Below, piece by piece: positions 1,049-64,000 of a stretch of DNA of 64,000 nt (positions are counted from its first letter, which is position 1; each line of letters opens with the position of its first letter). This stretch comes from an uncultured Verrucomicrobiaceae bacterium (lineage in GTDB: Bacteria > Pseudomonadota > Gammaproteobacteria > Pseudomonadales > CAMLJR01), in NCBI GenBank assembly GCA_964638025.1, contig CAZWXW010000008.1, forward strand, positions 12,285 to 76,284, given 5' to 3'. The translations under genes were made by a program, and so were the position numbers. Below the pieces are notes generated by a model that worked only from the letters and a program-made list of their open reading frames with translations, made no database searches and was not told the DNA's origin.

Positions 1049-3163
1049 ATGTTGACCGAAGCCCTCAAGTCCACCATTCAGCAGGCCTACCGGCGCTGGC
1101 TCGACAGCAAGGGGCTGAAGGCGCGCTATGGTCAGCGGCTGATGATCGCCGAGGTAGCGCGCACGCTGGCCAATGCCGGCAGCGACGAATCGGCGATTGC
1201 GGTGGTGGAGGCCGGCACCGGCACCGGCAAGACCGTCGCCTACGGCCTCGCCGCGATTCCGGTGGCGAAGGCGCTCGATAAACGGTTGGTCATTGCCACT
1301 GCCACCATCGCGCTGCAGGAGCAGGTGGTCTACAAGGATCTGCCCGACCTGCAGAAACATTCCGGCCTCGCCTTCAGCTACGCGCTGGCCAAGGGGCGCG
1401 GCCGCTACCTCTGCCTGGCCAAGCTCGACGGCGCGCTGACCGATGCCGGTGCCGCCGATCCGACGCTGGCACTCTATCCCGACGAATTGCAGATCAAGCT
1501 CGACGTCGCCACCCGCAGCCAGTTGCAGGTGCTGCTGGAGAAGCTCGGCAGTGACGAATGGGACGGCGATCGTGACCGCTGGCCGGAGCCGATTGCCGAC
1601 GAGGTCTGGAGTCGCGTCACCACCGATCACGCGCAGTGCACCGGGCGTCGTTGCCCGCATGTGCGCCAGTGCTGCTTCTTCAAGGCGCGCGAAGCGATCG
1701 AGAAGGTCGATGTCATCGTCACCAACCACGATCTGGTGCTGGCTGACCTCGCCCTCGGCGGTGGTGCGATCCTGCCGGCGCCGGCCGACTGCATCTATAT
1801 CTTTGACGAGGGGCATCACCTGCCCGACAAGGCGCGCGACCACTTCGCCTGCAGCGTGCGGCTGCGCGCCACCGATCGTGCGTTAGAGCAGAGTATTCGC
1901 GGCCTCGCTGGTGCGGCCGGCGAGATTGGCGAGACCGGTGGCGTCGACCGCCAGTTCGAACTGCTGCCGTCGATCATTCACGGTTTGCGTCAGCAGCTGG
2001 CGGCTGTGCGTACACCGCTCGAGCAGTTGCTCGAAGAGCACGCAGACGGTGTCGACAACTCACCGCACTACCGTTTTCCGGCTGGCATCGTCGATGACTC
2101 AATTCGCGAGCTCTCTGCGCAGCTGCGCGATGGCTTCGAAGAGCTCGGCGAGCGGCTCGGGCGCATCTGCGCCGTGCTGGAAGAGGCGCTCGAAGATGCC
2201 GCGCTGCAGGCCGTGCGGGCGGCGGCCGAGCGCTGGTATCCGCCGCTGAGCCTGCTGCGCGCCCGCGCCGAGGCCAACCGCGAGCTGTGGTTTCACTTTG
2301 CCCGCGATGCCGGCGACGAGAACCCGCCGCGCGCGCGCTGGGTCGCGGCCGTCAGTGGCAGTAGCGGCGTGTTCGATCTCGAACTGAACTGCAGCCCGAT
2401 CCTGGCGGCCGGCACGCTGCAGCATCATCTCTGGTCCACCTGCGCTGGCGCGCTGGTGACCTCGGCGACGCTGACGGCGCTGGGCAAGTTCGACCGCTTC
2501 CGCCAGCGCGCCGGTGTGCCGCTGGAGGCGACGACGGTGGTGGTGCCGAGTCCGTTCGACTATCCGCGCGCCGGGTTGTTATCTGTGCCGCCGATGCGCA
2601 GCGACCCCGGCAATCCGGCCGATCACACCGCCGAGCTGATCGAGCAGCTGCCGCGGCTGTTGAACCCGGACGAAGGCAGTCTGGTGCTGTTCGCGTCGCG
2701 GCGGCAGATGGAGGAGGTCTACGACGGCCTGACAGCGGTGTGGCAGGCACGCATCCTGAAGCAGGATCACCTCAGCAAGCAGGAGCTGCTGCGCCGCCAT
2801 CGCGAGACCATCGACGGCGGCACCGGCTCGGTGATTTTCGGTCTGGCCAGCTTTGCCGAGGGCGTCGACCTGCCGGGCGCCTACTGTCGCCACGTCGTCA
2901 TCGCCAAGATTCCATTCGCGGTGCCGGACGCACCGGTGGAGTCGGCGCTGGCGGAGTGGATCGAGGAGCGCGGCGGCAATCCGTTCATGGAGCTGGCGGT
3001 GCCGGATGCGGCAATCAAGCTGGTGCAGGCAGCGGGCCGGTTGCTGCGCACCGAGAGCGACAGCGGGCGCGTGACGCTGCTCGATCGGCGTATCGTCACC
3101 CGCCGTTACGGCCGCGCCATTCTCGATTCGTTGCCACCGTTCAGACGGGAGATCTCGACATGA
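1049..3163 (+). CDS. dinG: ATP-dependent DNA helicase DinG (XPD/Rad3-like, Fe-S)
   Basis: 704-aa ORF. Walker A 'EAGTGTGKT', DEAH-type box 'IFDEGHHL' and a Cys cluster 'CTGRRCPHVRQCC' are present. The N-terminus is collinear with E. coli DinG as I recall it. Confidence 0.85.
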   Translation: MLTEALKSTIQQAYRRWLDSKGLKARYGQRLMIAEVARTLANAGSDESAIAVVEAGTGTGKTVAYGLAAIPVAKALDKRLVIATATIALQEQVVYKDLPDLQKHSGLAFSYALAKGRGRYLCLAKLDGALTDAGAADPTLALYPDELQIKLDVATRSQLQVLLEKLGSDEWDGDRDRWPEPIADEVWSRVTTDHAQCTGRRCPHVRQCCFFKAREAIEKVDVIVTNHDLVLADLALGGGAILPAPADCIYIFDEGHHLPDKARDHFACSVRLRATDRALEQSIRGLAGAAGEIGETGGVDRQFELLPSIIHGLRQQLAAVRTPLEQLLEEHADGVDNSPHYRFPAGIVDDSIRELSAQLRDGFEELGERLGRICAVLEEALEDAALQAVRAAAERWYPPLSLLRARAEANRELWFHFARDAGDENPPRARWVAAVSGSSGVFDLELNCSPILAAGTLQHHLWSTCAGALVTSATLTALGKFDRFRQRAGVPLEATTVVVPSPFDYPRAGLLSVPPMRSDPGNPADHTAELIEQLPRLLNPDEGSLVLFASRRQMEEVYDGLTAVWQARILKQDHLSKQELLRRHRETIDGGTGSVIFGLASFAEGVDLPGAYCRHVVIAKIPFAVPDAPVESALAEWIEERGGNPFMELAVPDAAIKLVQAAGRLLRTESDSGRVTLLDRRIVTRRYGRAILDSLPPFRREIST

Positions 3164-3495
3164 CAGTTCACACCCCCACGGTTTACACAGATGTCGCCTC
3201 GCTGCTGATCGATCTCGAGGCCGAATTGCGGCGCGGCGGTTACTGGCAGGCAGAGCCGCTGGACGCGGCGGCGCTGGCCAGTGTCGAGCCGTTCGGCGTC
3301 GACACGATGACGCTGGCGCAGTGGCTGCAGTTCATCTTCATTCCGCGCATGCATCTGCTGGCGGCGGCGCAGCAGCCGCTGCCGGGGCGCTGCGAAGTGG
3401 TACCGATTGCGGAGGAGTTTTTCGGCAAGGGCCCCGCGGAGCAGAAAATTCTCGCGCTCATCGACGCGCTGGACAGGGCGATCAATCGCGGCTGA
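3160..3495 (+). CDS. YqcC-family (DUF446) protein
   Basis: ATG at 3160 overlaps the dinG stop codon (ATGA). 'TMTLAQWLQFIFIPRMHLLAAAQQPLPG' matches the recalled E. coli YqcC block 'TMEPLEWLQWVLIPRMHDLLDNKQPLPG'. Confidence 0.75.
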   Translation: MTVHTPTVYTDVASLLIDLEAELRRGGYWQAEPLDAAALASVEPFGVDTMTLAQWLQFIFIPRMHLLAAAQQPLPGRCEVVPIAEEFFGKGPAEQKILALIDALDRAINRG

Positions 3496-3542
3496 CGGTT
3501 CCGTGGTGGCTGCTGCTGCAAGGCGTGGCGCCTAGCCATGGC

Positions 3543-4034
3543 TTACCAGCGGTACTTTCCCCAGTTGTCCGGATTGGCCCAGTACTGCGAGTTGTTCCAG
3601 CTGCGTTTGCGGTTGTAGCTGCCGAGGTCGTAGCGATAGAGCGTCAGCAGGCGGCCGTCGTCATCGAATTCGCCGGCGCGCTGCAGGGCCAGCGCCAGCC
3701 AGTCGGTCAGCGACCAGCGCGGGTCGGCGGCGGTCAGCACGTAGAGCAGGTCGGTGTGCAGCGTGCGCAGTCGCCCCAGCAGTTCGATGGCATCGCGTTT
3801 GTCGAGCGCTTCGGTCAGGTCGATCACCAGCGCCATGTCGACATGGCCGATGTCGTTGAGCGCCATGTCGTTGAGCGGGAGGTCGTCGCGACTGATCAGT
3901 TGTTGGCAGAGGGGTTGGCACAGTGCCGGCCAGCGCGGGTCGCGGCTCAGCAGGAGCAGGGTCGACGGCTGCCGCTCGCGCAACAGCCGTTCGATCTCGG
4001 TCTCTGCGGTGGTCACGACGCCCGCCGCGGTCAC
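3543..4034 (-). CDS. Conserved hypothetical protein (C-terminus 'YWANPDNWGKYRW')
   Basis: 163-aa ORF. Its GTG start overlaps the stop of the upstream response regulator (GTGA), which implies translational coupling. I cannot assign a family with confidence. Confidence 0.6.
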   Translation of the reverse strand: MTAAGVVTTAETEIERLLRERQPSTLLLLSRDPRWPALCQPLCQQLISRDDLPLNDMALNDIGHVDMALVIDLTEALDKRDAIELLGRLRTLHTDLLYVLTAADPRWSLTDWLALALQRAGEFDDDGRLLTLYRYDLGSYNRKRSWNNSQYWANPDNWGKYRW

Positions 4035-4660
4035 GGCGGTGCCAGCAGGTCGCCGTCGCCGATGGCCATCACCATGCGCACCAGATGCGCCAGCGATTTG
4101 GCTTCCAGTTTTTCCATGACGCGGGCGCGATGGATTTCAACGGTGCGCTGGCTGATGTCGAGATCGGCGGCGATCACCTTGTTGGCGCGCCCCTCGACCA
4201 TCAGTCGCAGCACGTCGAGTTCGCGCGGCGTCAGGCTGTCGACCCGCAGGCGGATCACCTGGCGCTGCTGCAGTCCCTGCCGGCTTTCGCGGTCCAGCTC
4301 GATCGCGTGCTCGATCTTCTCCAGCAGCTCCTGCTCGCGATAGGGCTTCTGCACGAAGTCGACGGCACCGTGCTGCATTGCCTCGACCGCCATCGGCACG
4401 TCGCCGTGGCCGGTGACGAAGATGATCGGCAGGATCGAGTTGCGTTCGTTCAGCTTGCGCTGCAGTTCCATGCCGTTGATGCCGGGCATGCGGATGTCGA
4501 GCAGCAGGCAGCCGCTCATGTCGGCATCCCAGGCATCGAGGAAGGCGGTACCTGTGGAGTAGGTGGAAACCTTGTAGCCGACCGACTCCAACACCATCTG
4601 CAGCGAGTCGCGCACGGCTTCATCGTCTTCGACGACATAAACAGACGGGGTGTCGCGCAT
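4031..4660 (-). CDS. FixJ/NarL-type response regulator (REC + LuxR-type HTH)
   Basis: N-terminal receiver 'VYVVEDDEAVRDSL...LLDIRMPGINGMEL' and C-terminal HTH 'LTPRELDVLRLMVEGRANKVIAADLDISQRTVEIHRARVMEKL'. Confidence 0.9.
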   Translation of the reverse strand: MRDTPSVYVVEDDEAVRDSLQMVLESVGYKVSTYSTGTAFLDAWDADMSGCLLLDIRMPGINGMELQRKLNERNSILPIIFVTGHGDVPMAVEAMQHGAVDFVQKPYREQELLEKIEHAIELDRESRQGLQQRQVIRLRVDSLTPRELDVLRLMVEGRANKVIAADLDISQRTVEIHRARVMEKLEAKSLAHLVRMVMAIGDGDLLAPP

Positions 4661-4946
4661 CTGTATCTCCTTGTGGTCGGAACCGTGCGGCGATCCGGCT
4701 TCGGGCGGTGCCGGTCACTCCTGCGTCAATTACGTATATCCGTTGCCGACGACGCGTTCTAGGCTCCGGGAGTGCCCGGGGGTGGGGCGCGTCGCGGGCT
4801 ATCGATCCCGGCGTGATCCTCTGTCTGCAGCTCGACGCAGTGCCACAGCGTTGCGGACGCTGCTGTGAAGCACTGCAAATAACAACAACGACGCACACTA
4901 GCCCAATCCTCGGGGCTTGCCAATGCGATGACACGGATGGAAGGGA

Positions 4947-6698
4947 ATGGCTGCAAACCCCTCGATGAGGCGCGCCCTGCTGCCCGCACTGATGCTGGCG
5001 GTGCCGCCGTTGCTGCTGCTGATGTCGCTGCAGCTGATCCAGCCCGCCCTGCTCGCAACGCCCTGGTCGTGGCTGCTGGCTTTCATGCTGATCGCCGTCG
5101 GCATCTCCATGTTTGGTCGTTATCTCTACCGCCGGGCAGTGCTGGTCGGCGAGCAGTTGCTGGCGGCCGGTCGTGGCGAAGTCGGTGCCGATCCTTTCGA
5201 TGGCGATCCGCACGGGCCGGTGCAGCGGGCACTGGCTTATATCCTCGAACGGCACCGGCGCAGTGAACGGGCGCTGCGCGCCAGCGAGCAGCGTTTCCAG
5301 CTGGCGCTGGAGGCCAGCGATGCCCACCTGTGGGAGCACTGCCTGAAGAGCGGCAGGCTCACCTTCGATACGTCGATCGGCCGCATGTTTCTGGAAGACC
5401 AGATGCCGCTGGAGAAAGAGCCGCACTCGGTCGACACCCATTCGGTCGACACTGAGGTGCCGCTCAAACGGTTCATCGGCATCATTCATCCCGATGACCT
5501 GCCGCGTTTGCAGCACAGCAGCGAGGAGTTCTTCCGCAGCGGAGAGTTCACCTGTGAATACCGCTGCCGCCACCGCGAGCGCGGTTACATCTGGATGCGC
5601 TGTCGCGGCCGCGTCATGGAGCGGGCCGAGGATGGCACGCCGCTGCGCGCGCTGGGGACGATGACCGATATCAGCGACCTGAAACAGATCGAGGAGCGGC
5701 TGCAGGCGGCGTTGATCACCGCGCAGGATGCCAACCACGCGCGCGCGCAGTTCTTCGCCGGCATCAGCCACGAGCTGCGCACGCCGCTCAACGGCGTGCT
5801 CGGCTACACCCAGCTACTGTTGCGCGACGCGGTCGTCGACAGCGAGCCGCGCAGCCATCTGCAGGCGATCGAGCGCTGCGGCCAGCACCTGCTGCGGCTG
5901 ATCAACGACATCATCGATCTGGCGCAGATCGACAGCGGTCGCGTCGATCTGCACGAGGCGGAGTGCGATCTCCCCGTGCTGCTGGATAACGTCGGCCATG
6001 TGGCGCGGCAGCAGGCCGAGGCCAGGCAGCTGCAGTTCTCGCTGGAGCTCGATCCGCAGCTGCCGCCGCTGGTGCTGCTCGACGGAATCAAGTTGCGGCA
6101 GATTCTGTCGAACCTGCTCAACAACGCGGTCAAGTTCACCGAGCGCGGGGTCGTGACGCTGAAGGTCAGGGCCGTTGCCGGCGCCGCACCAGTGCTGCAA
6201 TTCGAGGTGCAGGACACCGGCATAGGCATTGCCGCCGAGCGATTGGCACAACTGTTCGAACCGTTCGGCCGCCCTGGCGAAAGCGACGACAGCGGCTTCG
6301 GGCTGGCAGTCAGCCAGCGGCTGTGCGAGTTGATGGGTGGACAGATAACGGTGAGCAGCGCGCCCGGCGCCGGCAGCTGCTTCCGCTTCGCGCTGCCGTG
6401 CCGGCGTATCGACGCCTGGAGCAGCGCGACTGCACCGCTGTCGCCGGTGGCGATGGCCGGCCCGCCGGCGACGGCCGTGGCGGGCGAGCCGCTGCGCCAG
6501 TTGCCGGAGTCGGCGCTGGTGCCGCTGCGCTCGGCGCTGGCGCTCGGCGACCTCGAAGGGCTGCGCTCGGCGCTGGCCGCGCTGCGCCAGCGGGTGCCGG
6601 CGGCGCAGTCGCTGATCGACCACTGCAACGCGCTGCTGGAGGGATTCGAGCTGGAGCGGATTCGCGAGCTGCTGGAAGATCTGCCCGGAAACGTCTAG
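4947..6698 (+). CDS. Membrane PAS sensor histidine kinase
   Basis: Two N-terminal hydrophobic segments, a PAS-like region ('IIHPDDL...EYRCRHRERGYIWMRCRG'), the H-box 'FFAGISHELRTPLNGVLGY' and an HATPase region 'VQDTGIGI...GFGLAVSQRL'. Confidence 0.9.
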   Translation: MAANPSMRRALLPALMLAVPPLLLLMSLQLIQPALLATPWSWLLAFMLIAVGISMFGRYLYRRAVLVGEQLLAAGRGEVGADPFDGDPHGPVQRALAYILERHRRSERALRASEQRFQLALEASDAHLWEHCLKSGRLTFDTSIGRMFLEDQMPLEKEPHSVDTHSVDTEVPLKRFIGIIHPDDLPRLQHSSEEFFRSGEFTCEYRCRHRERGYIWMRCRGRVMERAEDGTPLRALGTMTDISDLKQIEERLQAALITAQDANHARAQFFAGISHELRTPLNGVLGYTQLLLRDAVVDSEPRSHLQAIERCGQHLLRLINDIIDLAQIDSGRVDLHEAECDLPVLLDNVGHVARQQAEARQLQFSLELDPQLPPLVLLDGIKLRQILSNLLNNAVKFTERGVVTLKVRAVAGAAPVLQFEVQDTGIGIAAERLAQLFEPFGRPGESDDSGFGLAVSQRLCELMGGQITVSSAPGAGSCFRFALPCRRIDAWSSATAPLSPVAMAGPPATAVAGEPLRQLPESALVPLRSALALGDLEGLRSALAALRQRVPAAQSLIDHCNALLEGFELERIRELLEDLPGNV

Positions 6699-6771
6699 AG
6701 ATAACGGGCGTTGTGGGGGCGGTCATGCCGATGACGAGCCCGGCTTCGATAACAAACCAGGATGGAGAGGC

Positions 6772-8310
6772 GTGGTGAATTCGGTCATCGATTACGGCGA
6801 GCAGATCCTGCTGGTCGACGACAACCCGATCAACCTGCAGATTCTCTACAAGACGCTGCAGGGCAACGGCTATCGCCTGCTGATCGCGCGCAACGGCGAG
6901 TCGGCGCTCGACATCGCGCGCCAGGCGCGGCCGTCGCTGGTGCTGCTCGACGTGATGATGCCGGGCATGGATGGCTTCGAGGTGTGTCAGCAACTGAAGT
7001 CGGCACCGGAGACGCGCGACTGCGCCGTCATCTTTCTCTCCGCGCTGGGCGACAGCCAGGCCAAGGTGCGCGGCTTCGCGCTCGGCGGCGTCGACTACAT
7101 CGCCAAGCCGTTCCAGGCCGACGAGGTGGTGGCGCGGGTGCGCACCCACGTCAAGATCCAGCGCCTCGAACGCCAGCTGGCGCGCCGCAACACCGAGCTG
7201 GAGGAGGAGAACCAGCAGATTCTGAATGCCGTCGCGGAGGGCATCATGGCGCTCGATCCGGAGGGGCGCATCACGCTGGTCAACCCGGCGGCGACGACGA
7301 TCACCGGCTGGCCGGCGGCCGATGCCATCGGCGAAAACGTGCAGCAGCTGCGGCTGTTTCGCGATGAGCTCGGCACCAGCGTCGCCGAGGAGCTGACGCC
7401 GCCCTACCGCGCCTATTGCCTCGGCCAGAGCGTGGTCAGCGACTTCGAGCTGCTCTATCGCCGCGACGGCAGAACCATGCCGGTGGAGCTGGCCTGCTCG
7501 CCGCGCCGCGACGGTGGCGCGGTGATGGTGCTGCGCGACATCAGCGAGTGGCTGGCGAGCGAGGAGGCGCTGCGGCATGCGCGCGAGGAGATGGAGTCGC
7601 AGCGCCAGCACATGGCGCACATGGAGCGGCTATCGAGTTCCGGCGAAATGGCGGCCGGCATCGCCCACGAGGTCAACCAGCCGCTGACGGCGGTGGTCAA
7701 CTACGCGCGCGTCGGCCGGCGCATGCTGCAGCAGGCGGAGTTCGACCGCGACAAGCTGGAGGAACTGCTGACCAAGCTCGACCTGCAGGCGGTGCGCGCG
7801 TCGGAGGTGATCCAGCGGCTGCGCAGCTATGTGCAGAAGCCGCTCGGCGGTCGCACCCGCGTCGACATCAATGCACTGCTGCAGGAGGTGATCTCGCTGG
7901 CCGAGGTCGATTCGCGCATCAGCGACGTGGCGATCCACTTCGAGCCGGGCAGGGATCTGCTGCCGGTGATCGTCGACAGCGTGCAGATCCAGCAGGTGGC
8001 GCTGAACCTGATCCGCAACGCGATGGAGGCGATGGCGGCGTCGCCGCAGCGCAATCTCGGGGTGGTCGTCGAAAGTGGCATGGAGGCGGGGCAGGTCAGC
8101 TTTCGCGTCATCGACCGCGGTTGCGGGCTGTCGGCGGAGGCGGAGGCGCAGCTGTTCAACCCGTTCTTCACGACCAAGACCAATGGCATGGGAATCGGGC
8201 TGTCGATCTGCCAGGGCATCGTGCAACGGCACGGTGGCGAGATCGGTTTTCGGCGCAATGCCGAGGGCGGAGTGACCTTCTACTGCAGGTTGCCGCCGGC
8301 GGAGGCGTAA
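6772..8310 (+). CDS. REC-PAS-histidine kinase (FixL/DctB-type H-box)
   Basis: N-terminal receiver 'ILLVDDNPINLQIL...LLDVMMPGMDGFEV', a PAS segment, the H-box 'AAGIAHEVNQPLTAVVNY' and an ATPase region 'VIDRGCGL...GMGIGLSICQGIV'. GTG start with a GGAGAG motif upstream. Confidence 0.88.
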   Translation: MVNSVIDYGEQILLVDDNPINLQILYKTLQGNGYRLLIARNGESALDIARQARPSLVLLDVMMPGMDGFEVCQQLKSAPETRDCAVIFLSALGDSQAKVRGFALGGVDYIAKPFQADEVVARVRTHVKIQRLERQLARRNTELEEENQQILNAVAEGIMALDPEGRITLVNPAATTITGWPAADAIGENVQQLRLFRDELGTSVAEELTPPYRAYCLGQSVVSDFELLYRRDGRTMPVELACSPRRDGGAVMVLRDISEWLASEEALRHAREEMESQRQHMAHMERLSSSGEMAAGIAHEVNQPLTAVVNYARVGRRMLQQAEFDRDKLEELLTKLDLQAVRASEVIQRLRSYVQKPLGGRTRVDINALLQEVISLAEVDSRISDVAIHFEPGRDLLPVIVDSVQIQQVALNLIRNAMEAMAASPQRNLGVVVESGMEAGQVSFRVIDRGCGLSAEAEAQLFNPFFTTKTNGMGIGLSICQGIVQRHGGEIGFRRNAEGGVTFYCRLPPAEA

Positions 8311-8362
8311 CGTCCGGCCAGATGACGCCGGTTGCCTCCGCCGCGGTGAACGCGGTGCGGAA

Positions 8363-8554
8363 TTACTGCTCGCTGTCGGCCGGCTGGCCGATCTCGTCCT
8401 GAATCCGGCGATAGACCTCTTCGCGGTGCACGCTGACCTCTTTCGGGGCCGCGATGCCGAGCCGCACCTGGTTGCCGCTGATGCCGAGTACGGTGATCTT
8501 GATCTCGTCGCCGATGATCAGGGTTTCTCCGAGACGTCTGGAGAGTACCAACAT
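8363..8554 (-). CDS. csrA: Carbon storage regulator CsrA/RsmA family, copy 1 (63 aa)
   Basis: '[52 protein letters not shown]' is collinear with E. coli CsrA. A GGAGGA Shine-Dalgarno lies 6 nt upstream. It sits inside a longer listed ORF (8363..8920). Confidence 0.9.
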
Positions 8555-8676
8555 GCCGAATTCCTCCTGGGGGCACATCAAGGGCCGCTCCGGAGAAAAC
8601 CCTGGAGCGGCCGAGGCGATTGCATCGCCATGTGGTGCCCTTGAGGGCACCGGTTGATTGGTTATCCGCGATCCGG

Positions 8677-8871
8677 TCAGCCGGTGGCGACGCGGTCGTT
8701 GCGGTCCAGCTCTTCCTGGATACGACGGTAGACCTCTTCGCGGTGCACGCTGACCTCTTTCGGGGCCGCGATGCCTAGTCGCACTTGATTGCCATTGATG
8801 CCGAGTACCGTCAGTTTGATGTCGTCGCCGATCATCACGGTTTCGCCGAGGCGTCTGGAAAGTACCAACAT
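8677..8871 (-). CDS. csrA: Carbon storage regulator CsrA/RsmA family, copy 2 (64 aa)
   Basis: '[52 protein letters not shown]'. GGAGA lies upstream of the ATG. Confidence 0.9.
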
Positions 8872-9150
8872 TGCCGTATCTCCGGTTTCCGTACAGGTGT
8901 TGCCAGTGTAGAAAGGGCACCCTTGCGGCGAAATTCGCTCATGTACCTACCGCGTTACGGAATAGTCCGTATCTGGATAGGGAGGCAGCGAAGAACGGCG
9001 AAACGAAGAACAGGCGGAGCGACGGCGGGCAATCGCGGCGGCGGCATTGTAGGTTTCGGTTTTCAACACCCGTAATAGGTAATTTCACCTAGGGTTCATT
9101 CGACTGGCGGCGCGCATACGGGCGCCACCGGCGAGCGTGGGAGGAAGGGG

Positions 9151-9900
9151 ATGGTCTGGCGTCTGCTGGCGGGATTGATGGCACTGGTGTGGTGGGCGGG
9201 CGCGATGGCGGCGGACAGCGCCGTGCTGCGGGTGGGCACGGCGTTCGACCGGCCGCCGCTGAGCTTTCAGAGCGAGGGCGAGTGGGTCGGCATGGAGGCG
9301 GATTTCGCCCGTGTGCTGGCGGCCCAGCTCGGCCGCAAGCTGCAGCCGGTGCCGCTGGCGCGCAGTGCCCTGCTGCCGGCATTGCAGAGCGGCGAGATCG
9401 ATATCGCCATGGCCGGGCTGGTCATCGACGACGCGGGGCTGGCACAGGCTGATTTCACCATGTCGTATCAGAAGGCGGGGCTGATGCCGGTGATCCGCGT
9501 CGTCGACGTGCAGCGCTTCCGTGGCCCCGGCAGCCTGATGCAGCCCGGCTACCGGCTCGGCTACGTCCGCGACAGTGGCGGCGGTCGCGTCGCCGAGCAG
9601 CTCGGGATCAAGGATGGCATCGGCTTCGACGCGCCGGCGCAGGGGCTGCAGGCGCTGCTCGACGGCAAGATCGACCTGCTGATCGATCGCGCGGCGACCA
9701 GCTGGGTGCTGCCGACCGAGCCGCGCTACGGCGACTTGATGAGCCTCGACCGGCTGCTGACCGAGGAGTTGCTGGCGTGGGCGGTACGCAAGGGCGATGA
9801 CGCCTGGCGGCAGCGCATCGACGCCGAGCTGGGGCGGATGCGGCAGACCGGCGTGCAGCAGCACATCCTCGACCGCTGGGTGCCGGTGCAACCGCAGTAG
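9151..9900 (+). CDS. Periplasmic substrate-binding protein, family 3 (amino-acid ABC type), orphan
   Basis: Signal peptide 'MVWRLLAGLMALVWWAGAMAADS'. SBP_bac_3-like blocks 'LRVGTAFDRPPLSF' and 'GEIDIAMAGLVIDD'. No permease or ATPase gene is adjacent. Confidence 0.75.
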   Translation: MVWRLLAGLMALVWWAGAMAADSAVLRVGTAFDRPPLSFQSEGEWVGMEADFARVLAAQLGRKLQPVPLARSALLPALQSGEIDIAMAGLVIDDAGLAQADFTMSYQKAGLMPVIRVVDVQRFRGPGSLMQPGYRLGYVRDSGGGRVAEQLGIKDGIGFDAPAQGLQALLDGKIDLLIDRAATSWVLPTEPRYGDLMSLDRLLTEELLAWAVRKGDDAWRQRIDAELGRMRQTGVQQHILDRWVPVQPQ

Positions 9901-10075
9901 TGGCGACGCGAGCGGCCCTGCATGTCGGCGCTGGATATGTCCACACGGGATTGGCACTGCGCCGCATTTGTCGCAGATCAACCCGCTGTCGGCTCCGCAG
10001 TGGCGCCGCGTCGACTACCATCTGCCGGTACAAAAAAATAAGGTTCGGCGATGTTGCCGGGCGGCGGTGGCGGGG

Positions 10076-10777
10076 GTGACATTGCGTCGACTGGGGTGGG
10101 TTCTGATTGCGCTGCTGGCGGGGTGCCATTTGTGGCCGCGCGAGGCCGAGGTGGCGCTGCCTCCCGCTGGCGAGATGCCGGTGCTGTCGGAGCAGGGCGC
10201 GACGCTGTACCGGGTCAGAGACAGCGCCTCGGTGGTCACGCTGAGGGTTTACCGCGAGGGCATGCTGGCGAAGCTCGGCCACAACCACGTCATCACCGCC
10301 ACCCGCATCTCCGGCACCGTCTTCCTGCAGGGTGAGCTGTGGCGCTCCGGCGCCCGCCTGCTGATCCCGGTGCGCGATCTCGCGGTCGACCGCCCGGCCG
10401 ACCGCCGCGCCGCCGGCAAGGAGTTTCCCGGCACGCTGAAGCCCGAGGCGATCGAGGGCACCCGCCGCAACATGCTCTCCACTCAGCTGCTCTATGCCGA
10501 GGCGCACCAGTTCATCGAATTGCGCGTGGCCGGCATACGCGGCGATCCGCCCAACGTGACGCTGGTGGCGCGCGCCAAGGTGCGGGGAAAGGTCAGCGAC
10601 CTGCTGATACCGGCCCGTCTGGAGGTGACGCCGAACCGCATCAAGGTGATGGGGTCGATGCAGATCTCGCAGCGCGAGCTCGGGCTGGAGCCGTTCAGCG
10701 TGCTGAATGGCAACCTGCGGGTGCGGGATGTGGTCGACGCCGACTTTTATTTGATAGCGAACCGCGTGCCGCAATAG
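10076..10777 (+). CDS. YceI-like lipid/polyisoprenoid-binding lipoprotein
   Basis: Lipobox 'LLAGC'. YceI-like features 'LAKLGHNHVI' and 'ISQRELGLEPFSVLNGNLRVRDVVDADFYL'. The start (GTG at 10076) is uncertain. Confidence 0.65.
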   Translation: MTLRRLGWVLIALLAGCHLWPREAEVALPPAGEMPVLSEQGATLYRVRDSASVVTLRVYREGMLAKLGHNHVITATRISGTVFLQGELWRSGARLLIPVRDLAVDRPADRRAAGKEFPGTLKPEAIEGTRRNMLSTQLLYAEAHQFIELRVAGIRGDPPNVTLVARAKVRGKVSDLLIPARLEVTPNRIKVMGSMQISQRELGLEPFSVLNGNLRVRDVVDADFYLIANRVPQ

Positions 10778-55141: not shown

Positions 55142-55570
55142 CTAAAAAAACAGGCTTGGGCTGATATGAAAACGATCAGACAACGCTTTGATGTGATTCT
55201 TGTTGAGGCTGCGCTCACCGGATAGCACACGAGACACCATCGACTTTGATCCGATTTCCGGAAGATCGGCGGTACCCAGGTTGTGCTGATCCATCAAGAG
55301 TCGAAGCATTGCCACGTCAGATGGCTGAGACATGGAGCGTTGCTCGAAAGCTGTCATCTCAGCATCTTTGTTCTCGTAAGATTCGATCGCGCGGCTCAGC
55401 AACTCAATGACACCGTTGAGCGGATCGTCATGTGAGTCTTGGGCTTCTTCCAGCAAGGATTCGATCAGCTCCAGCGCTTCTTCATAGTGTTGCTCATCGT
55501 TGATATGCAGATAGGGAGCCGCAGCCTGAGCGAAGCTGCGGCAAGCATCCTTAAAAGCGACGGCTGTCAT
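55142..55570 (-). CDS. higA: Type II antitoxin HigA-family (HTH) protein
   Basis: Its ATG overlaps the higB stop (ATGA). C-terminal HTH-like region 'GSKSMVSRVLSGERSLNKNHIKALSDRFHISPSLF'. Confidence 0.8.
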   Translation of the reverse strand: MTAVAFKDACRSFAQAAAPYLHINDEQHYEEALELIESLLEEAQDSHDDPLNGVIELLSRAIESYENKDAEMTAFEQRSMSQPSDVAMLRLLMDQHNLGTADLPEIGSKSMVSRVLSGERSLNKNHIKALSDRFHISPSLFF

Positions 55571-55881
55571 TTCAACTCTCCTCTTGCGTAGCGTTTGCAT
55601 ATTTTGTCGTACTCGGCATGAGTAACGATGTGCTTCACGTATATGCGGTTTTGGACAAACTGGATAAAGACGATCATTCGAAGATTGTTGCCGCCGATAT
55701 CAATGACCCACCATTTGTCCTTGTACTTAAAGTTGTCCAATGAAGGGAAAACCCTTCTCATTTCATCGGGAGAGGCGAACTCTTCCTTTTTGAGTACCTG
55801 ATACAGATCGTCAATCGCCTGTTTCTGATTGGGATAATCCCTGGCCGCCTCATTGAACGGGCGTTTGGATATGACGTGCAT
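55567..55881 (-). CDS. higB: Type II toxin HigB-family mRNA interferase
   Basis: 104 aa. 'MHVISKRPFNEAARDYPN...WVIDIGGNNLRMIVFIQFVQNRIYVKHIVTHAEYDK' matches the recalled HigB_toxin family pattern. AGGAG Shine-Dalgarno. Confidence 0.82.
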   Translation of the reverse strand: MHVISKRPFNEAARDYPNQKQAIDDLYQVLKKEEFASPDEMRRVFPSLDNFKYKDKWWVIDIGGNNLRMIVFIQFVQNRIYVKHIVTHAEYDKICKRYARGELK

Positions 55882-59793: not shown

Positions 59794-60629
59794 CTGCGGA
59801 GTTTTAGATTTAGGTGCGGCTGTGCGAGGGGCGCCAATAAATACATAGAAAAAGGAAGGGTTTATCTCCTGGTTTAGACGCGTAGAGGAGATTCCTGCGA
59901 ATTTTGAGGGCCTATCTCGTCACCGCAAGTTCTAATTCCTTGGCGAGGGTTAGCAGTTTGTGCCCGTCGTGAATCTTCATGTCGTTGCCATAAAAGAAGA
60001 AGCTCAACTTTGGGGAGTAGATCTGTCGATGACAGTGGGAAATAACGATCGAGTTCATGGCGGAAACGTGCTCCATGCTTGCTTCAAGAACGCCACTCTT
60101 CGCACCGAATTCCCCTATTAGTGCGAGCGAGCTACTTAGGGGGAAATATACTCTCGTACCCTTAAGGCCAAATCCCGGGCTTTTTTGAAGTAGTGCTGGA
60201 ATTTTGCTTGGCTCTCTCCAGCTCAGTGAAGCAGGGTGGTCCGAAGTGATAAAGGGGCCATTCGATGCGTCAGTTTTGATTAGAAGCCAATCTCTACTTT
60301 GTAGGAAGGGGAGGATTTCTGAGATTAGATGGGCTTCTGACTGGATTATTTCAAAATTCGACAGCTCGTTCGGAAGGCTGTTGGTTGTATAAAATTCTTT
60401 GACTTGCTCAAAGGTGATGGATTCTGGGAATTCGATTCCTCTTTCTTTCATAGAGTCTTTGAGTTCTTCCCAGCACTCCTTCGATTTTAAAGCGCTCAGG
60501 ATCAAATTTTTGGTTGTTTCTTCCCGGAACGCGCCAAGGTGGGCTCGCATTTCTGGGGATCCGACGTCCCCCCCTATTTGAGTAGCGCTAGTGTTTAGAG
60601 TCCAATACCCCTGACCCAGGAGATTGGAC

Positions 60630-60893
60630 GTGAAGAAGCGTTTTACCGAAGAGCAGATCATTGGCTTCCTGCGCGAGGCCGACACCGGGGTGGCGATCAA
60701 GGAGCTGTGCCGCCGGCACGGCTTTTCCGAAGCCAGTTACTACCTGTGGCGCGCCAAGTTCGGCGGCATGGATGTGTCGGATGCCAAGCGGCTAAAGGCA
60801 CTGGAAGCCGAGAATGCGCGCCTGAAAAGGTTGCTGGCCGAGTCGCTGCTGGAGAACGAGATCACGCGCGAAGCGCTCCGAAAAAAGTGGTAG
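60630..60893 (+). CDS. IS3-family transposase OrfA (HTH)
   Basis: '[68 protein letters not shown]'. GTG start with an AGGAG Shine-Dalgarno. Confidence 0.88.
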
Positions 60894-61750
60894 GCGCACA
60901 GCCGCGCCGTGAGTTGGTGCGCCACATGATCGGTTGCGGCATGAGTGAGCGGCGCTCGCTGCGGGTCATTGGCATGAGTGCCAGCGCGCTGTGTTATCAG
61001 CCCGCTCCCGACCGCAACCAGGCTTTACGGCAGCAGATCGTCGCGCTCGCGCACCGGCATCGCCGATACGGCGCCGAGATGATTTATCTGAAGCTGCGCC
61101 AGGATGGTCTGCTGGTGAATCACAAGCGGGTGGAGCGACTGTACGCCGAGGCCGGCCTGCAGGTCAGGCGCCGCAAGCGCAAGAAGATTCCCGCGGCAGA
61201 TCGACAGCCGCTGGGTCGCCCACTGAGCGCCAATCAGGTGTGGTCGATGGACTTTGTGTTTGATCGCACGGCCGACGGGCGCGTCATCAAGTGTCTGACG
61301 ATCGTTGATGACGCCACTCATGAAGCGGTCGCCATCGTGCCGGAGCGCGCCATCGGTGGGGTTTCTTTAACTCGCATCCTTGATCGTCTGGCAGCGGATC
61401 GTGGGCTGCCGAAAGCGATACGCACTGACAATGGTATGGAGTTCTGTGGCAAGGCGATGCTGACATGGGCGCACGAACGCAGCGTGAAGCTGTTTCTGAT
61501 CGAACCTGGCAAGCCGAATCAAAATGCCTACATCGAATCGTTCAATGGCCGCTTCCGCGACGAGTGCCTGAACGAACACTGGTTCACCAGCTTGCCGCAC
61601 GCCAAGGTCGTCATTGAGCGGTGGCGGCGAGAATACAACGAGGAGCGACCGAAGAAAGGATTGGGCGGACTGACCCCGGCGGCTTACGCCAAACAACTGG
61701 CCATCCGATCCGCTACATTAACCGCGGACTCTAAAGCCGAGTGCTACTGA
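60881..61750 (+). CDS. IS3-family transposase OrfB (DDE integrase core), expressed as OrfAB by a -1 frameshift
   Basis: Slippery heptamer A AAA AAG at 60881..60887. The -1 frame continues '[13 protein letters not shown]...'. rve-type core blocks 'WSMDFVFD', 'IRTDNGMEF' and '[20 protein letters not shown]'. Confidence 0.88.
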
Positions 61751-62141
61751 ACACGGGGGGACGTCGGATCTAATCGAGAGCGTCGCGATTAGTGAAAGTA
61801 CGTTTTCTCGATGATCACCTTCGAATTTGTGGGTGCTTTCTATTTCAAGAATCGATTCTGAGACTTTTGATTCGAATTTGCTGAGATTTGTCTCAAGCTG
61901 GTTTGGATCGATATTGGGGATTTCTATTCTATTAAAGTCTCGAATTGCACCGACGTTTCTTGTTGTTGTTTCAAAGTGTTTGTTTGTCTTTAGATCGATA
62001 ACTGATAATTTTGATTTTTTGCTTCTTCCGCGAGTAAATCCCTTTAAGTAGCACTGGGAAAGATAGTGATGGTTTCTCGCGCTCATAGCCATATGATCCT
62101 GAGGTTCAGCCCTGATGCCTTGGGGTTATCGGTTCGTAGAC

Positions 62142-63890
62142 TCATGTGGAGTCTGTACGCAGCTGCCACTGAATTTGGCGGCGTGCGGAAGATATGATGT
62201 CGTTGAATAACACTCCGGATACATTTGGTTCAAGATTTTGGTTTGGGAAGTTTGGAGAGCGCTTGCCGCTGATCAGTAATACTTTTATTGGTTTGCTGAC
62301 GTGTTTAAGAAAATCATGCCGGTATCCAGTGGCTTGTTGGTAGTCTTTTAGGTTAAGTGGGTGTGAGGGTCTCTTGAATTCGATCAGAAGATACTCGCCG
62401 TTGAGGTTTTCATTGAGCAATAGATCGGGGCGCTTGGTTGCTTGCTTTCCTTGATACTTCTTGGCGAGATAATCCTCGACCTGTCTTTGCAGTGTCTGAT
62501 TTGAGCTGAAGAGTGAATATTCCGGGCCGAGAGTCCAGAGGTTTCGCTCCATAGCCTTATGCATGGTCACCTCAAGCGTTTCGTCGGTTTTAGCTAATAG
62601 AGCCAACTGATCTAGAAATTCTGAGCGAGCTCTGGCTTGTTCGACTAGGAAAGCCATGTCCGCCAAGCCAAAATCATTGAGGGAGTCCGCAATGGAGGCG
62701 ATATCGCGACGCTTTGCTTCTGCGAGGTGTTCAACGACTGATCGATAGTCGGAGCGTTCCAGCGCCTCTAGTACCACGAAAACGATGGGTTCGATTTTGT
62801 TGGCGGGCTCGTCATAATACTTTTCAAGAATCTTCTTGATCGCTCGGTCCGCATATTCGCGTTTGAATTCGGGCATCGCCGCCAAACGCTCATGGACTGC
62901 CTTTTGTAGGCGTGCATGAGCTAGCCGCATTTCCTGGCCGTGAGTTTCAGTGAACGCAGTGCGCAGCTTGTCTTGAACATACTGCGAGACATTCTGGTAT
63001 TGCTCGCTGTTTTCCACTACCGAGTCCCAGCCAGCTGTGACGAACTCGCTCAAGCCATTGGCTTCAATCTCTCCGTACATTTTTCTTAGAAGCTTTGGCG
63101 GGAAGCTGTCACATTGGTCTAAGCCAAAGAAGCTGGGTTTTCCTACGGCCTTTCCATCGACCATTAAGGTTATACCTGGCTCGCGGAGGCTGGTCTTTCC
63201 TCGGCTTATAGAGAAGCGCAGATTAATTTCGCCTGTGTTTGGCAAGGAAGTGGTTTCCTCTGTATATGTTCCGTCTAAATCATCAATGGCTAAAGGTTTT
63301 TCATCGATAACAATGTTGAAATCCTTTTGGCGTCCGTATTCCTGAATTAGGATTTGACGAAGACGATTGCTGTCGGGGTAAATGAGTCCTTGATGCAAGC
63401 TGGACAGGATAATCTTTGTGCCGTGCAGCTTCGGAGCGCAAGGCTTGATTGTTGGAGTAATCGGCAGGCGTTCTATGTCGGTAACCTTTTCCAGCTGAGC
63501 AAGGCTTAAAGTGAAGCTGACCTCAGTGCCGCGTGTTCTAGTCGTTAGTGTCATGACTGACGCCGCCATAAAGCCGGAAAACTTCCCAACTCCCTTGCGC
63601 CCTTTGATAGTGCGATGCTTGCTTGGCGTGCGCTCTCCACGTTTGGTTCGACGGTCAGATGCAATTTTCAGGTAATGAGCGTTGAGCTCCTGAGCTGTCA
63701 TGCCTGTGCCATCGTCTTCAATTACGATTGGCTCATCACTCATTGGCGGAGGTAGGGTGATTGATACCTGTTGTGCGTCTGCGTCCCAAGCGTTATCGAT
63801 TAGCTCCTTGAGAGCTTTCTCCGTTGAGGAGTACTCCTGGCTAAGTAGAGTGGCTATTCGAGAGTCGACTTTGAAACGCAGGTTCTTCAT
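62142..63890 (-). CDS. GHKL (HSP90/MutL/MORC-like) ATPase fused to a PD-(D/E)xK, Shedu/DUF4263-like nuclease domain
   Basis: 582 aa. N-box 'KELIDNAWDADA', G1 'IEDDGTGMT' and G2 'GRKGVGKFSGF'. C-terminal 'NLWTLGPEYSLFSS...KRPDLLLNENLNGEYLLIEFKRPSHPL' supplies the D...E-x-K motif. AT-rich. It ends 49 bp upstream of, and runs co-directionally with, the DUF4238 gene. Confidence 0.8.
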   Translation of the reverse strand: MKNLRFKVDSRIATLLSQEYSSTEKALKELIDNAWDADAQQVSITLPPPMSDEPIVIEDDGTGMTAQELNAHYLKIASDRRTKRGERTPSKHRTIKGRKGVGKFSGFMAASVMTLTTRTRGTEVSFTLSLAQLEKVTDIERLPITPTIKPCAPKLHGTKIILSSLHQGLIYPDSNRLRQILIQEYGRQKDFNIVIDEKPLAIDDLDGTYTEETTSLPNTGEINLRFSISRGKTSLREPGITLMVDGKAVGKPSFFGLDQCDSFPPKLLRKMYGEIEANGLSEFVTAGWDSVVENSEQYQNVSQYVQDKLRTAFTETHGQEMRLAHARLQKAVHERLAAMPEFKREYADRAIKKILEKYYDEPANKIEPIVFVVLEALERSDYRSVVEHLAEAKRRDIASIADSLNDFGLADMAFLVEQARARSEFLDQLALLAKTDETLEVTMHKAMERNLWTLGPEYSLFSSNQTLQRQVEDYLAKKYQGKQATKRPDLLLNENLNGEYLLIEFKRPSHPLNLKDYQQATGYRHDFLKHVSKPIKVLLISGKRSPNFPNQNLEPNVSGVLFNDIISSARRQIQWQLRTDST

Positions 63891-64000
63891 TGCGCTATTT
63901 CATCCTTGCTAGGTTGCTTCGCTGTCCAGTTTCTTCTTTTTGCTTAGTAAAGGGTGTTTTTCGTCATTTCCTGCCATAAAATCTTTCGATTAAGTTTTTT

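Follow-up and report, generated by a model that had tools for sequence, protein, structure and literature searches.

A GHKL ATPase-nuclease gene and an insertion-disrupted DUF4238 gene: probably two adjoining anti-phage modules of described types rather than one new system

The DNA considered here is a 64,000-nt stretch of contig CAZWXW010000008.1 (positions 12,285–76,284), hereafter the window, and the segment treated is 59912..64000 of it. Two minus-strand genes lie in this segment with a 49-bp spacer between them. The upstream one encodes a 582-aa protein in which a GHKL ATPase is fused to a PD-(D/E)xK nuclease, and the downstream one encodes a DUF4238 protein. An earlier note on this DNA correctly saw two co-directional genes 49 bp apart (62142..63890, and a DUF4238 start at 62092), and proposed that they form one undescribed anti-phage system. 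Most probably they are instead two autonomous single-gene anti-phage modules, each of an already described type, standing side by side. The fusion itself is not undescribed, as it was reported as paraMORC3 in 2008 and as type 1D Shedu in 2023/2025, and the DUF4238 copy is dead, having been knocked out by an insertion sequence (IS). The two modules would adjoin through the clustering of defence genes in shared islands, and not because of joint function.

What separates the two readings is the neighbourhood of the homologues in other genomes. The GHKL-nuclease clade is widespread, two of its peptide patterns being matched in 399 species-level genomes. From these, 80 species-level genome loci, whose hosts are mostly beta- and gammaproteobacteria, were fetched and all of their open reading frames (ORFs) were called and clustered; with four further contexts added, the homologues surveyed cover 49–81% identity. 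A DUF4238 gene adjoined the GHKL homologue in 0 of the 80 loci and in 0 of the 4 extra contexts. Conversely, none of 76 DUF4238 loci (353 kb in total, 34 of them with at least 1.8 kb of upstream sequence) contained a GHKL homologue, even at a tblastn E-value of up to 10. The earlier note had itself named, beforehand, a lack of adjacency in other genomes as grounds for giving the pairing up, and in the loci surveyed the homologues were never neighbours. The closest DUF4238 relatives, from three look-ups, are stand-alone genes whose called neighbours are unrelated and mostly housekeeping genes; the systematic search for conserved DUF4238 partners was aimed at two genes, the GHKL gene and the 376-aa gene upstream of it that is described below.

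The six closest GHKL relatives (74–81% identity) have different neighbours in each case, and this includes the nearest of all, at 78–81%. One metagenomic contig carries CBASS upstream and an AAA_15/21 gene downstream, another carries an integrase and a DEAD/ResIII helicase, and the remaining close relatives other than that of Pseudomonas aeruginosa, which is taken up below, have neighbours of unknown function. The same-strand genes directly 3' of the GHKL homologues are equally varied, and include SduA, DUF4062, SLATT_5, RhuM, Mrr_cat, SLFN/AlbA_2, ABC-3C CTD2, HD and DUF2130 genes, as well as ThsB followed by ThsA. Since the neighbourhoods are this variable, single-gene action of the 582-aa protein is indirectly supported. 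The homologues reside in defence islands, and in this respect the setting suggested by the earlier note was right. The features of the two genes, in window coordinates, are as follows.

62142..63890, minus strand: intact gene for the 582-aa GHKL-ATPase/PD-(D/E)xK nuclease (paraMORC3, GHKL-type Shedu-like), from the ORF, the HATPase_c_3 match, 1498 homologues and an AlphaFold2 model
62093..62141, minus strand: intergenic spacer of 49 bp, from the gene coordinates
61767..62092, minus strand: 5' part of the DUF4238 gene, codons 1 to about 109, ending in a GATC target-site copy (Pfam DUF4238, 5.2e-18; PADLOC DUF4238-Pers, 5e-35)
60562..61766, plus strand: IS3-family element of 1205 bp (HTH_Tnp_1, rve and rve_3 matches; inverted repeats; excision restores the frame)
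59912..60561, minus strand: 3' part of the DUF4238 gene, codons about 110–323 and stop (Pfam DUF4238, 2.3e-14; PADLOC DUF4238-Pers, 5.3e-30)

The 582-aa protein has the complete Bergerat ATPase motif set that had been read from the sequence, with ELIDNAWDA at aa 29-37, DDGTGM at aa 59-64 and GRKGVGKFSGF at aa 97-107, and Pfam HATPase_c_3 matches aa 20-158 at 1e-29. Towards its C-terminus are NLWTLGPEY (aa 450-458), RPDLLLN (aa 487-493) and YLLIEFKRP (aa 500-508). A homologue search returned 1498 matches, many of them full-length at 63–81% identity, and an exhaustive search of representatives gave 166 clusters at E-values of up to 1e-30, with full-length relatives down to about 25% identity. 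Across 66 homologues the N-box, G1 and G2 residues are invariant, as are E440, D489, E504 and K506, which make up the classical E-D-ExK signature. The gene in the window is intact and retains every family-invariant residue.

An AlphaFold2 model built with the 66 homologues in the alignment has a predicted local distance difference test score (pLDDT) of 79.5, and shows first the GHKL fold, then a beta-rich middle domain and a stretch of long helices of about 150 residues, and at the C-terminus an alpha/beta domain. Foldseek searches with the full model returned the N-terminal and middle domains of Hsp90, TRAP1, HtpG, MORC3 and MORC4 over 370-470 columns at E-values of about 1e-13; the S5 type of the middle domain is judged from the model and these matches. 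The helical middle of about 300 aa given in the earlier note therefore has to be divided, because aa 160-295 are beta-rich and of Hsp90/MORC type, and only the 150 aa or so that follow are helical. Both of the folds that the note had put forward for checking by profile and structure, GHKL at the N-terminus and a nuclease at the C-terminus, were found with Pfam, AlphaFold2 and Foldseek. The domains are placed as follows.

63417..63833, minus strand: GHKL (Bergerat) ATPase fold, aa 20-158, with N-box E29/N33, G1 D59-G63 and G2 G97-G102 (Pfam; motifs; Foldseek)
63006..63413, minus strand: predicted beta-rich middle (S5/transducer-like) domain, about aa 160-295 (secondary structure of the model; Foldseek)
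62547..63005, minus strand: predicted long helical region, about aa 296-448 (model helices 296-337, 341-357, 363-379, 383-391 and 394-434)
62160..62579, minus strand: C-terminal PD-(D/E)xK nuclease domain, about aa 438-577, with E440, D489, E504, K506 and Q519 (family-invariant residues; domain model)

This architecture is that of paraMORC3, which was defined as a GHKL domain, an S5 domain and a C-terminal nuclease of restriction endonuclease (RE) fold with an E-D-ExK motif (Iyer, Abhiman & Aravind 2008, Biol Direct 3:8, PMC2292703). The family was described as prevalent in proteobacteria, sporadic, laterally mobile, and either linked to restriction-modification (RM) systems, including Type III, or stand-alone (PMC2292703). 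The 582-aa protein has the GHKL domain with intact ATP-binding motifs, the S5-type middle domain and the RE-fold E-D-ExK nuclease, and its relatives have the mostly proteobacterial occurrence in RM operons and mobile hotspots (RM genes in 33 of 80 loci; genes of integrative and conjugative elements, or ICEs, in 14). No substantive difference was found between the protein and the published description of the family, which had been defined by profile searches.

The second described type is type 1D Shedu, which includes proteins composed of HATPase_c_3, a middle domain and DUF4263 (Gu et al. 2023/2025). Its member VcSduA (A1552VC_00276), from VSP-II of Vibrio cholerae WASA, is a single-gene system that protects alone, in E. 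coli from T1-like phages and in V. cholerae from phage X29; E27A in the ATPase or K557A in the nuclease abolishes this protection, and homologues are reported from about 1.2% of the complete genomes (Adams et al. 2025, PMC12137116). Like VcSduA, the 582-aa protein is one polypeptide with an N-terminal GHKL domain, an Hsp90/MORC-like middle ('N24') domain and a C-terminal PD-(D/E)xK domain, which in the 582-aa protein matches DUF4263 below the Pfam threshold, and both genes lie in a defence island. Both proteins have the catalytic N-box Glu and the ExK Lys (E29 and K506 here, E27 and K557 in VcSduA), and the distance between them is 477 residues versus 530, or about 53 shorter in the 582-aa protein. 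By analogy with VcSduA, which shares its architecture, the 582-aa protein may act as a stand-alone defence and would need both its ATPase and its nuclease. The representative set was searched for relatives 596-659 aa long whose N-box Glu is residue 27. Ten distant relatives of 613-659 aa were looked up, three of which have this Glu, and no V. cholerae protein was among these ten.

That the C-terminal domain has a PD-(D/E)xK fold is certain. Since the Foldseek result of the full model is dominated by Hsp90, aa 425-582 were modelled apart (pLDDT 76), and this model matched the FokI cleavage domain, EndoMS/NucS, Bax1, BspD6I, McrC and Can2, with no Shedu entry in the top 50 matches. A profile search of PDB sequences gave matches to the GHKL N-terminal region only, and no Shedu structure. 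The weak Pfam matches of the C-terminus are VRR_NUC and SduA_C (DUF4263), and SduA_C is the recurrent best Pfam match of this nuclease domain, being found in 13 of 14 members at E-values of up to 0.01 (best 1e-5), below the gathering threshold. Among 3343 ORFs from the collected loci, bona fide SduA and the C-terminal domain match only each other outside their own families, reciprocally and at E-values of about 1e-3. In canonical Shedu SduA, which has a DUF4263 domain behind a non-enzymatic N-terminal sensor, the core E..W.fG..(K)R.D..hhE.K aligns with that of the 582-aa protein, and reciprocal profile cross-matches link the two C-termini, but the similarity is weak and the N-terminal regions are entirely unlike. 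Thus, of the Shedu-type nuclease recognised by the earlier note, the PD-(D/E)xK fold and DUF4263 as the best family match stand, while the match to the Shedu type itself is below threshold, and the finer assignment that the sequence comparisons give is 'Shedu-like, sub-threshold'.

Canonical SduA and the GHKL-nuclease can also be neighbouring separate genes. In P. aeruginosa (loci L003-L008, e.g. L003:8001-10965) a 78%-identical GHKL-nuclease is followed after 62 bp by a canonical 384-aa Shedu SduA (PADLOC SduA, 1.3e-166), with a resolvase upstream, so that two nucleases with related catalytic cores stand in tandem. Among the ten distant relatives, none passes the SduA_C threshold. In a distant relative of 659 aa (P0496) the C-terminal domain passes Pfam NucS_C (31.4 bits vs a threshold of 24) rather than SduA_C, which suggests that the nuclease domains of the GHKL superfamily bridge the NucS and Shedu families.

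The downstream gene is indeed a DUF4238 gene, as had been noted, and thus belongs with a known single-gene defence protein: one DUF4238 protein (Rst_DUF4238, or DUF4238-Pers in PADLOC) is enough to protect E. coli from T7 (Rousset et al. 2022, PMC9122126). Both parts of the gene match Pfam DUF4238 and PADLOC DUF4238-Pers. The element that separates them contains orfA (60624..60893) and orfB (to 61750), has imperfect terminal inverted repeats, is 75.6% identical to an IS1403-family element, and is flanked by a 4-bp GATC duplication (60558-60561 and 61767-61770). Removal of 1209 bp, that is the IS and one GATC copy, leaves an uninterrupted DUF4238 ORF of 323 aa. The rebuilt protein matches DUF4238-Pers at 6.9e-71 over positions 3-308 of 309 and PHROG 29785 at 3.7e-67, and intact homologues of this copy are at most about 50% identical among those found. 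The deletion of 60562..61770 proposed in the earlier note rebuilds the frame, and is equivalent to 60558..61766, since the 4-bp duplication makes the two indistinguishable. The note had both genes inactivated by the IS; the DUF4238 gene is split, and it alone is inactivated, while the GHKL-nuclease gene is intact. Compared with Rst_DUF4238, the window copy therefore has a full-length profile match and stand-alone relatives, and differs in being disrupted by the IS.

Alternatively, the 582-aa protein could be an accessory or alternative nuclease subunit of an RM system, in which it would serve a Type I or Type III enzyme by looping or translocating DNA, and in the window it would be an orphan remnant without its RM partners. 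Such a role was suggested by Iyer et al. 2008 (PMC2292703), and the N-terminal region is similar to the BbrUII/HgiDII restriction enzymes (179 bits). RM genes can be recognised in 33 of the 80 GHKL loci, or in 32 of the 68 that have at least 3 kb of upstream sequence, and in 22 loci an RM gene lies directly upstream on the same strand, in the form of Type III mod-res, Type I hsdM/hsdS, a PLD-SNF2 protein or an MmeI-like enzyme. However, the majority of the loci lack a recognisable RM gene, the closest relatives adjoin CBASS, Shedu or helicases instead, the locus in the window is free of DNA methyltransferase genes, and VcSduA works without an RM partner. In addition, one common gene order unites the 14 loci that carry the c9 Type III res gene, most of the complete ones running into DUF4400 and TraD, and they are therefore not independent observations; it appears that they represent a single ICE-type arrangement spread over many genera. 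Overall, an RM-accessory role is plausible for part of the GHKL-nuclease family and is not required by the data, and as an account of the 582-aa protein it is unlikely.

The Type III block is seen at L019, L022-L027, L029, L035, L037, L038, L048 and L069 (about 3200-10700 in complete loci), where a Type III mod (N6_N4_Mtase), a 911-aa res (ResIII), the GHKL-nuclease, DUF4400 and TraD/TraG follow one another, with a gap of 6-18 bp or an overlap between res and the GHKL-nuclease. The genera include Accumulibacter, Stenotrophomonas, Pandoraea, Thauera, Solimonas, Lysobacter and others, and the block looks like cargo of one ICE family. Another string is found at L062, L064 and L065 (about 2000-9900; Herbaspirillum, Limnohabitans and Bosea), and consists of hsdS, an AAA_15/AAA_21 ATPase, an unannotated protein of about 300 aa (c107, c293), the GHKL-nuclease, ThsB (TIR) and ThsA (SIR2-SLOG), so that an RM system, paraMORC3 and Thoeris stand head to tail.

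Several observations weigh against the reading of two autonomous modules of described types. The 582-aa protein is known here from its sequence and a predicted model alone, and its likeness to VcSduA is one of domain architecture only, with homology deduced from the published description. The Pfam SduA_C match of the 582-aa protein (1.8e-3) scores 18.9 bits against a cut-off of 27 bits, the PADLOC SduA models do not match the nuclease domain at all, and hhalign against canonical Shedu aligns the catalytic core E..W.fG..R.D..E.K with an E-value of 0.0028 and a probability of 11%. In the ten distant full-length relatives, NucS_C or HSDR_N_2 is matched as often as SduA_C. As regards the independence of the two genes, their GC contents are 49% and about 44%, so that a joint acquisition is possible, and on the minus strand between them the scan of the segment picked up neither terminator-like nor promoter-like sites. 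The AT-rich setting had been remarked on before and is real, since GC is 48% over the last 2 kb versus 62% window-wide. Because the genes share a strand, a 49-bp gap, the lack of a terminator-like site in the scan and a low GC content, co-transcription and joint acquisition are possible; the scan is however uninformative, as the minus strand returned no site at all and the segment had fewer than shuffled controls.

The open frame that the earlier note saw at the edge of the window also belongs to a gene, the third one of this low-GC insert.

63944..64000, minus strand: last 18 codons and stop of a 376-aa Cys-rich orphan gene, the remainder lying beyond the edge (translation; whole gene in L001 and L002)

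The identical locus is present in two metagenomic contigs, in which the 376-aa gene is whole (L001:114-1244 and L002:443-1573). It lies 54 bp upstream of the GHKL gene, is likewise low in GC relative to the host, and encodes a Cys-rich protein with several CxxC pairs. Just past the window a gcvP-like (glycine dehydrogenase) gene ends upstream of it, judging from a translated fragment only. The low-GC insert is thus composed of the GHKL-nuclease, the DUF4238 gene and the orphan 376-aa gene, downstream of the gcvP-like fragment. The 376-aa protein matches nothing in Pfam, PADLOC, PHROGs and NCBIfam and lacks relatives among viral contigs, and its gene is absent from all 156 other loci examined (the 80 GHKL loci, by phmmer at E-values of up to 0.01, and the 76 DUF4238 loci). 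It is regarded here as a neighbour of the two modules.

These three genes could in principle be one co-transcribed, coupled defence system that is undescribed, consisting of the GHKL-nuclease and DUF4238 and perhaps the 376-aa gene. Their common strand, the gaps of 49 bp and 54 bp, the lack of a terminator-like site between them in the scan and their low GC relative to the host all agree with such a system. In contrast, the pairing is unique to this locus among the GHKL and DUF4238 contexts surveyed, the DUF4238 protein and VcSduA have each been shown to act alone, and the 376-aa gene occurs in no other locus examined; a coupled system is therefore very improbable. There is equally little chance of a lineage-specific local composite, in which the Cys-rich 376-aa protein, the paraMORC3-type nuclease and DUF4238 would be co-transcribed and cooperate, for example with the 376-aa protein or DUF4238 sensing infection and handing over to the ATP-gated nuclease. 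If it were true, the composite would be a locally assembled multi-gene system unseen elsewhere.

The remaining proposal, under which the 582-aa protein would be an ordinary Type II restriction enzyme with sequence specificity, of the GHKL-containing BbrUII/HgiDII kind, draws on matches to NCBIfam NF050001 (BbrUII/HgiDII Type II restriction enzymes; 1.4e-52) and to two PADLOC REase_II models (2e-24), and is rejected as the least probable of all, since the 179 bits of the former are far under the equivalog cut-off of 550, the best-scoring stretch of all these matches is the N-terminal GHKL region only, and a cognate DNA methyltransferase is missing here and in most loci.

Other genes of the window show that the island is not continuous. 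A higB toxin gene and its higA-like neighbour are located at about 55142..55881 (minus strand), some 4 kb from the DUF4238 remnant, and the genes in between have a host-like GC content (OsmC, an AraC-family regulator, a cupin and a small-molecule SAM methyltransferase). Since these host-like genes separate the higB/higA-like pair from the DUF4238 remnant, the defence island is patchy rather than contiguous.

Returning to two autonomous modules as the preferred reading, the most likely mechanism of the 582-aa protein can be described as follows. From the modelled fold and the catalytic residues recognised in the sequence, we infer a clamp that gates the nuclease. The GHKL ATPase (catalytic E29, Mg-binding N33, G1 and G2), together with the Hsp90/MORC-type middle domain, would probably dimerise upon ATP binding, whereupon the middle and helical regions may rearrange like a clamp, as in MutL, Hsp90 and MORC. 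The clamp would control the access of DNA to the C-terminal PD-(D/E)xK site (E440, D489, E504 and K506), and in this way the ATP cycle may license the cutting of invading DNA.

For the reading of defence loci, the segment indicates that adjacency and a short gap within a defence island are no evidence of a functional pair, and that conservation of the neighbourhood needs to be checked. The GHKL gene repeatedly stands 3'-most in Type III and Type I RM operons on ICEs, which supports the paraMORC prediction made in 2008 and raises the question whether GHKL-type Shedu-like nucleases cooperate with RM systems. In addition, there is an annotation gap, in that the Shedu models of PADLOC 2.0 and the Pfam DUF4263 threshold miss this widespread and well-conserved clade. 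Since the proteins have no PADLOC Shedu match and match DUF4263 below threshold, defence annotation of PADLOC 2.0 vintage probably overlooks the clade.

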